NCBI RefSeq assembly: GCF_030013595.1
Contig: NZ_CP122768.1
Source: Escherichia coli
GTDB taxonomy: Bacteria; Pseudomonadota; Gammaproteobacteria; Enterobacterales; Enterobacteriaceae
Strand: one strand, 5' to 3'
Length of the DNA stretch: 64,000 nucleotides
The notes beneath the pieces are model-generated. The model did not search any database. It was not told where the DNA came from and saw only the letters and a list, made by a program, of their open reading frames with translations. Position numbers and translations under genes: made by a program. Positions 27,066 through 27,510 of this stretch are shown piece by piece; the first letter of the stretch is position 1, and each line of letters starts with the position of its first letter.

Positions 27066-27422
27066 AGTCGCTGCCATTTATTCAGATAAAGAGTGCGTGG
27101 ATGGTAGCAGAATTTCGCTTTGCGTACCGCCTGTTGTTAAGTGATTTGATCGATAGTTGTTAATGATGTCAACGATGGCGCAAAAAATGCCCGCTTTTGG
27201 TGCGCGCTGCGTCAGAATGGCGCAGTAATTTCCAGTAAATTTCGTCAATGATCACAATTCCAGAATTATATTTTACTTCTGCATAACATTGCGTTTTTTA
27301 TTCTTTTTATTCACCCACATCGCAAACGTATTCACTTTATATGCACTTTAAATGCATATGGTTTGGTTATAACTGCTTGATTTCCAGTTAGCCTCCGCGA
27401 TTTATGCACTTTTATCACTGGC

Positions 27423-27438
27423 TGGCACGAACCCTGCA
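27423..27438 (+). promoter_or_regulatory. sigma54 (-24/-12) promoter of the ast operon
   Basis: TGGCACGaaccCTGCA read directly; GG and GC 12 nt apart, about 70 nt upstream of the astC ATG; the ast operon is known to be NtrC/sigma54- and sigmaS-dependent. Confidence 0.65.
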
Positions 27439-27510
27439 ATCTACATTTACAGCGCAAACATTACTTATTATTAACATATAAATAACGAATTATTTACTGT
27501 AGAGGTCGCT

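Follow-up and report, generated by a model that had tools for sequence, protein, structure and literature searches.

The region that controls the arginine succinyltransferase operon astCADBE is already known from Escherichia coli (Kiupakis & Reitzer 2002, J Bacteriol 184:2940) and from Salmonella Typhimurium (Lu & Abdelal 1999, J Bacteriol 181:1934). The components reported for the E. coli region are sigma-54, sigma-S, NtrC, ArgR and IHF, to which a secondary source adds CRP. In this study, we analyzed the counterpart of that region in a stretch of E. coli DNA of 64,000 nucleotides (the window), and we consider it very likely that it represents the same multi-input control region of astCADBE. 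It is the same locus as that described by Kiupakis and Reitzer, and nothing in it differs in kind. The Salmonella Typhimurium region is orthologous and its equivalent of the sigma-54 promoter, TGGCACGAATGCTGCAAT, was bound by sigma-54 in strain LT2 in a published ChIP-chip analysis. Salmonella and E. coli differ in the 4-nt spacer of the promoter and in the sequences between the sites. The locus of S. enterica arizonae retains all of the blocks at the same spacing. Promoters of the glnHp2/nifH type are comparable to that of ast in that they have a tandem enhancer for a protein of the NtrC family upstream, a DNA-bending site between enhancer and promoter, and a weak -24/-12 element. However, the ast promoter differs from them in having a longer loop (~215–235 bp) and in adding a ligand-responsive bender, ArgR with arginine, to IHF. 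Since the ast loop holds ArgR and arginine besides IHF, the assistance to looping would be conditional on arginine.

The assignment of the locus, which had been proposed in a reading of the sequence made without database searches (hereafter the sequence-only reading), was borne out by profile searches in which the products AstC, AstA, AstD, AstB and AstE each scored above the NCBIfam curated cut-off, and by the divergent neighbor xthA. The astCADBE operon occupies 27511–33538 on the plus strand, and xthA, encoding exodeoxyribonuclease III, occupies 26259–27065 on the minus strand, where NCBIfam NF008733 matches residues 5–271 of a longer open reading frame. The true start of xthA is the MKF at 27065, on which the K-12 annotation and our coordinate mapping agree and which is conserved in orthologs. 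The divergent xthA/astC intergenic region is therefore 27066–27510, a length of 445 bp, at the downstream end of which a Shine-Dalgarno sequence for astC, GAGG, can be read directly at 27502–27505 (plus strand) and is conserved in orthologs. Mapping to K-12 MG1655 was linear, with window position 27511 corresponding to position 1831982 of NC_000913.3, and the intergenic region has six substitutions and no indels relative to that strain, none of them in a motif position. Of 5426 complete E. coli genomes, 5424 gave a match of ≥90% identity to a 601-bp query across the region, always between astC and xthA. To assess conservation beyond the species we used 80 orthologous astC loci of Enterobacteriaceae, one genome per species, and in most genera the distance between xthA and astC was 423–448 bp. 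An Rfam search gave a single match, to mgtC_leader, which was below threshold (E = 0.12, 21 bits against a cut-off of 48 bits) and was treated as chance, and a sigma-70 scan of the intergenic region returned nothing relevant.

Two further observations were made on the genes at this locus. The mechanically called open reading frame of astD (29702–31237) has 511 residues, and family models align to it from residue 20 onward; its true start probably lies ~19 codons further downstream and overlaps the stop of astA. On the xthA side, a conserved block, GTGCGTGGATGGTAGCAGAATTTC, is located at 27094–27116, which places it 29–51 bp upstream of the start of this minus-strand gene at 27065. Read on the minus strand this block contains cTACCAT, a possible -10 element of the sigma-S type for xthA.

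The sigma-54 promoter, CTGGCACGAACCCTGCA, is at 27422–27438 on the plus strand, with GG at 27424–27425 (-24) and GC at 27436–27437 (-12). The near-consensus -24/-12 element that had been noted at 27423–27438 is present exactly there, as TGGCACGAACCCTGCA, and coincides with a published ChIP-seq site. Its GG and GC doublets are 10 bp apart, as is the case for sigma-54 elements, and it agrees with TGGCACG-N4-TTGCW at 11 of 12 positions, being the sole match of at least 11/12 on both strands of the 64-kb window (128 kb in all). Among 500 shuffles of the intergenic region that preserved dinucleotides, 3 reached its sigma-54 score. The pattern TGGCAYG-N4-[C/G]TGCA was found in all 80 orthologs, 87–92 nt before the ATG, with a 4-nt spacer that varies. 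With a looser one-mismatch pattern, TGGCAC-N5-TTGCW, five matches were found in the window against 3.4 expected, which is not above chance. The other matches to that pattern (at 16314, 18212, 19297 and 58844) are at a chance-level number, and none of them has an intact -12 GC together with TGGCACG.

The ChIP-seq site is OS17 of Bonocora et al. 2015, identified for sigma-54 in K-12, whose motif is the identical 17-mer and whose status in EcoCyc is "confirmed". The center of the OS17 motif, position 1830087 in NC_000913.2, corresponds to window position 27430. The same authors predicted that transcription starts 19 bp downstream from the motif's center and 62 nt before astC, and it is from these two values that we place the predicted start at 27449 on the plus strand. 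The element is thus a confirmed sigma-54 promoter.

A second promoter appears to overlap it. The sequence cTACATT at 27441–27447 (plus strand) has a C at -13 and resembles the sigma-S -10 element CTAYACTT, for which a C at -13 is likewise the criterion that we used. The exact sequence is shared by 71 of 80 orthologs, and hardly any variation is seen in the tract AATCTACATTTACAGCG, which lies just downstream from the GC of the sigma-54 -12 element. One sigma-54 and one sigma-S promoter have been reported for the ast operon (PMC4014581), and we infer that cTACATT may be the -10 hexamer of the latter. It could be argued that the sigma-54 element, though bound, is mostly silent and that the sigma-S promoter chiefly drives expression. 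Such an argument would draw on the finding that the majority of E. coli sigma-54 sites are transcriptionally inactive in standard conditions (Bonocora et al. 2015), and on descriptions in the literature of astCp as a weak sigma-54 promoter and of astC as strongly RpoS-dependent. However, astCADBE is known to belong to the NtrC regulon: NtrC binds there directly and nitrogen limitation induces the operon, an induction that is reported in the literature to be lost in an rpoN or glnG mutant. In addition, EcoCyc lists the astC sigma-54 promoter as experimentally confirmed, and both promoters have been reported to be active, each under different conditions (PMC4014581). A mostly silent sigma-54 element is consequently an explanation to which we give almost no credence.

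The position of the NtrC enhancer proved to be different from that expected. NtrC candidates had been sought in the AT-rich dyads at ~27320–27420, within a control region that was taken to extend over 27240–27510. We scanned for the consensus TGCACC-N4-TGGTGCA, scoring 13 positions of each 17-mer, and no 17-mer in 27240–27510 reached even 9/13. The only NtrC-like tandem in the intergenic region is at 27188–27224, to the left of that interval. Its first site, TGCCCGCTTTTGGTGCG (27188–27204), matches at 10/13 and is centered at about -253 from the predicted start. The second, TGCGTCAGAATGGCGCA (27208–27224), matches at 10/13 on both strands and is centered at about -233, 20 bp from the first. 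Matches of 10/13 numbered 19 in the whole window on both strands, from which 0.13 would be expected within the 445 bp between the two genes. The TGC.C and GC cores of the tandem are conserved in the 80-species alignment, and a perfect TGCACC is present at the tandem in Enterobacter, Klebsiella and many other genera. The NtrC site of the astC promoter is unusually distant, which would fit centers at about -253 and -233.

Published NtrC binding data require some care in this respect. An 80-bp NtrC ChIP-seq bin of Brown et al. 2014 is at window 27416–27496, on the promoter, and taken at face value it would favor an enhancer much closer to the start, as would repeats containing TGCAC at 27342 and 27405 within the dyads. 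However, at all six loci compared (glnK, gltI, rutA, ddpX, astC and nac) the sigma-54 motif center of Bonocora et al. lies inside the NtrC bin of Brown et al. or adjoins it. Since the bins track the sigma-54 motif centers, they do not localize enhancers, and the NtrC ChIP signal seems at these six K-12 loci to mark the promoter and not the enhancer. NtrC was also found by gSELEX to bind the xthA/astC intergenic region, with a peak ~430 bp upstream, near the xthA start; we take this peak to be of low resolution, which is not stated in the source paper. Both the ChIP-seq bin and the gSELEX coordinate were therefore rejected as localizers of the enhancer. With matches at 27188 and 27208 only, and with perfect TGCACC in other genera at those upstream sites, it is highly improbable that the dyads at 27320–27420 include the NtrC enhancer along with ArgR sites, and we place the enhancer at 27188–27224.

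The AT-rich dyad itself has a different probable partner. The 32-mer GTATTCACTTTATATGCACTTTAAATGCATAT that was quoted in the sequence-only reading is at 27328–27359, and the arms of its dyad (27339–27348 and 27350–27359) are 90% complementary about a center at 27349. A direct repeat, TATKCACTTT, begins at 27329 and again at 27340, and a third copy occurs at 27403. We searched for ArgR operators as two 18-bp imperfect palindromes, WNTGAATWWWWATTCANW, 2–3 bp apart, using a matrix made from the best double boxes of 11 K-12 regions (carA, argF, artJ, artP, argA, argG, argR, argD, argECBH, argI and hisJ), which we take to be the classical operators. ARG box 1, ATTCACTTTATATGCACT (27330–27347, center about -110.5), has a score of 10.9 bits, which makes it the best ArgR matrix match of the intergenic region and number 7 of the window. 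Among orthologs it hardly varies, and the median there was also 10.9 bits. ARG box 2, AATGCATATGGTTTGGTT (27351–27368, center about -89.5), is conserved in its left half alone, for which most genera have the canonical TGAAT in place of the TGCAT of E. coli. The double box at 27330–27368, with a 3-bp spacer, has a score of 10.8 bits and is rank 2 in the window.

These scores are weak by two measures. The training operators are far above ast, at 24.9–39.8 bits as doubles, and their median was 16.5 compared to 10.9 for box 1. In addition, the ast scores are no better than composition-matched chance, as shuffles reached that of the single box in 24% of cases and that of the double box in 7% (143/2000). 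The best ARG double box in the window, with 16.1 bits, is an AT-rich tract of low complexity, atatatataaataaaaattt, at 54365–54403. Since the top match is a tract of this kind, the matrix evidently rewards AT-richness, and it was rejected as sufficient evidence by itself.

Conservation is more discriminating than the matrix. The 64-kb window has a single occurrence of the motif ATKCA-N7-TGMAT, which spans box 1's right half, the spacer of 3 bp and box 2's left half, and 79 of 80 orthologs have the motif as well, equally far from the ATG. An extended version, TATKCACTnnnTATKCA-N7-TGMAT, is shared by 77 of 80 species. The ARG boxes cannot be established from the E. coli sequence alone, and it is the conservation across 80 species that indicates that the AT-rich dyad is functional. 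Possibly, some protein other than ArgR, such as Lrp or an unknown factor, binds the dyad and the TATKCACTTT repeats, and their likeness to ARG boxes is a by-product of AT-richness. That would account for matrix scores within composition-matched chance, for a left half of box 1 that is TCACT and not TGAAT, and for the non-conserved right half of box 2, and astC has been reported as a direct target activated by Lrp. Yet ATKCA-N7-TGMAT has the exact inner-half geometry of two ARG boxes separated by 3 bp, in addition to its being unique in 64 kb and nearly universal in the orthologs, and most species carry the canonical TGAAT. The match to the Lrp consensus is at chance level, being reached by 100 of 500 shuffles of the region. 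Moreover, ArgR is reported by secondary sources to bind the astC promoter and to provide accessory, arginine-dependent activation of it in both E. coli and Salmonella. We regard binding by another protein in place of ArgR as very improbable, and an ArgR site, as had been suggested for this dyad, is its best-supported reading.

Other sequences with some resemblance to ARG boxes are present nearby. A weak single box, TCTGCATAACATTGCGTT, at 27278–27295 scored 6.0 bits in E. coli and a median of 7.5 bits in orthologs, in which the conserved positions are TGMAT..(n)T.C. In Escherichia, a tandem of two copies of TTTTTATTC at 27295–27312 creates extra, weak ARG-like boxes that are specific to this genus, and the stretch in which it is found (27296–27328) is poorly conserved in other genera. 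Closer to the promoter, TTATGCAcTTTT at 27402–27413 is invariant in orthologs and includes the third copy of the TATGCACTTT direct repeat. As a full ARG box it has a poor score (ortholog median -1.0 bits); it may be an ARG half-site, located 63 bp (3 × 21) from box 1, or may alternatively serve the sigma-S promoter as an A/T-rich upstream element.

Between the ARG pair and the promoter is an IHF site, AATCAAGCAGTTA, at 27370–27382 on the minus strand, centered at about -73. It is an exact match to WATCAANNNNTTR, of which the window has two in total, and an exact match was reached by 22 of 500 shuffles. The orthologs have the exact consensus in 75 of 80 cases and vary at its four N positions. 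Ernst et al. 2008 (PMC2266799) attribute to Kiupakis and Reitzer a footprint obtained with DNase I for IHF at astC.

The distances between these elements are conserved to an extent that the sequences between them are not. Across ~80 species the inter-site sequence is only ~60–78% identical, while the spacing of the elements is essentially fixed. The ARG pair is 29 bp from the IHF site in 77 of 77 species, the IHF site is 53 bp from the sigma-54 promoter in 76 of 78, and a GATCACA sequence further upstream is 91–92 bp from the ARG pair in 77 of 77. NtrC site 1 is 234–236 bp from the sigma-54 promoter in 59 of 71 species, and in most of the remaining 12 the NtrC anchor is 20 bp closer, at 215–216 bp, which we read as NtrC site 2.

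Another block, AAATTTCG-N5-GATCACAATTCCAGAATTATATTT (27237–27273), is nearly invariant in the 80 species and as conserved as the promoter core. The block has a CRP-like right half (TCACA), there is a weak ARG match in it, its agreement with the Lrp consensus does not exceed chance, and a perfect TATAAT, running from 27271 to 27266 on the minus strand, points toward xthA. A CRP scan found nothing of 8/10 or better anywhere in the intergenic region. The best candidate, and the sole CRP-like sequence, is TTCGTCAATGATCACA at 27241–27256, which matches TGTGA-N6-TCACA at 7/10 and whose right half and flanks are strongly conserved. Lu and Abdelal reportedly footprinted a CRP site in the ast region of Salmonella, and the block is the only candidate for that site. 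Potentially, the fixed spacing of the NtrC, GATCACA, ARG, IHF and sigma-54 elements in diverged sequence reflects a single stereospecific nucleoprotein assembly in which 27237–27273 binds a further factor or acts as a leftward promoter toward xthA, neither of which has been described for E. coli ast. We consider this combined proposal unlikely.

Downstream of the predicted start, the astC leader has three direct repeats, GTAAATAATTC, GTTATTTATAT and GTTAATAATAA, at 27465–27497 on the minus strand with a phasing of 11 bp. One stretch, GTTATTTATATGTTA, matches the ArcA consensus at 13/15, a value reached by 7 of 500 shuffles, and a match of at least 13/15 was found in 52 of 80 orthologs. TTAACA, AAC and TTATTTAC are conserved. 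Read on the minus strand the repeats are GTAA, GTTA and GTTA, three in-phase 11-bp repeats, and the pattern sought for an ArcA-P operator was two or more direct repeats of (T)GTTA spaced by 11 bp. The leader repeats thus resemble an ArcA-P operator, an assignment that is sequence-based only, as is that of the sigma-S-type -10 element; astC is mentioned in papers on ArcA.

The layout of the ast control region, as evidenced by its motifs, their conservation and their fixed spacing, fits the established enhancer-dependent model of sigma-54 transcription. According to that model, sigma-54 RNA polymerase binds the -24/-12 element at 27422–27438, where occupancy by sigma-54 has been shown in the literature. 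Under nitrogen limitation, phosphorylated NtrC would bind the tandem enhancer ~215–235 bp upstream (27188–27224) and contact the closed complex by DNA looping, leading to an open complex and to transcription from a start near 27449. The loop would carry the ARG-box pair (27330–27368) and the IHF site (27370–27382), and bending by arginine-bound ArgR and by IHF on a template with element spacing fixed to the base pair would favor the contact between NtrC and polymerase. The expected outcome is the published pattern, namely induction by nitrogen limitation that is independent of ArgR and superinduction by arginine that is dependent on it. The overlapping sigma-S-type -10 element (cTACATT) could account for expression in stationary phase, and the ArcA-like repeats of the leader would permit repression under limited respiration. 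Binding of NtrC, ArgR and IHF at ast has been reported, whereas the exact boundaries of the sites, the role in assisting the loop and the argument from phasing are inferred here, with all site boundaries resting on motifs and conservation and not on footprints.

Overall, the sequence-only reading held for the ast locus, for the sigma-54 promoter and, as the best-supported interpretation, for the ArgR dyad, and it did not hold in its placement of NtrC, for which the candidate sites are at 27188–27224. It also overlooked the IHF consensus, the overlapping sigma-S-type -10 element, the ArcA-like repeats of the leader and the conserved block at 27237–27273. The outcomes of our analyses are in this sense corrective: the NtrC enhancer is outside the interval that had been noted, the ARG boxes are weak, and elements of the IHF, sigma-S and ArcA types are also present. 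Since 1999–2002 the ast promoter has been a textbook case of a sigma-54 enhancer loop that is aided by a ligand-responsive DNA-bending protein, and the indel-free spacing of its elements across genera makes a neat comparative case for a loop of rigid geometry.
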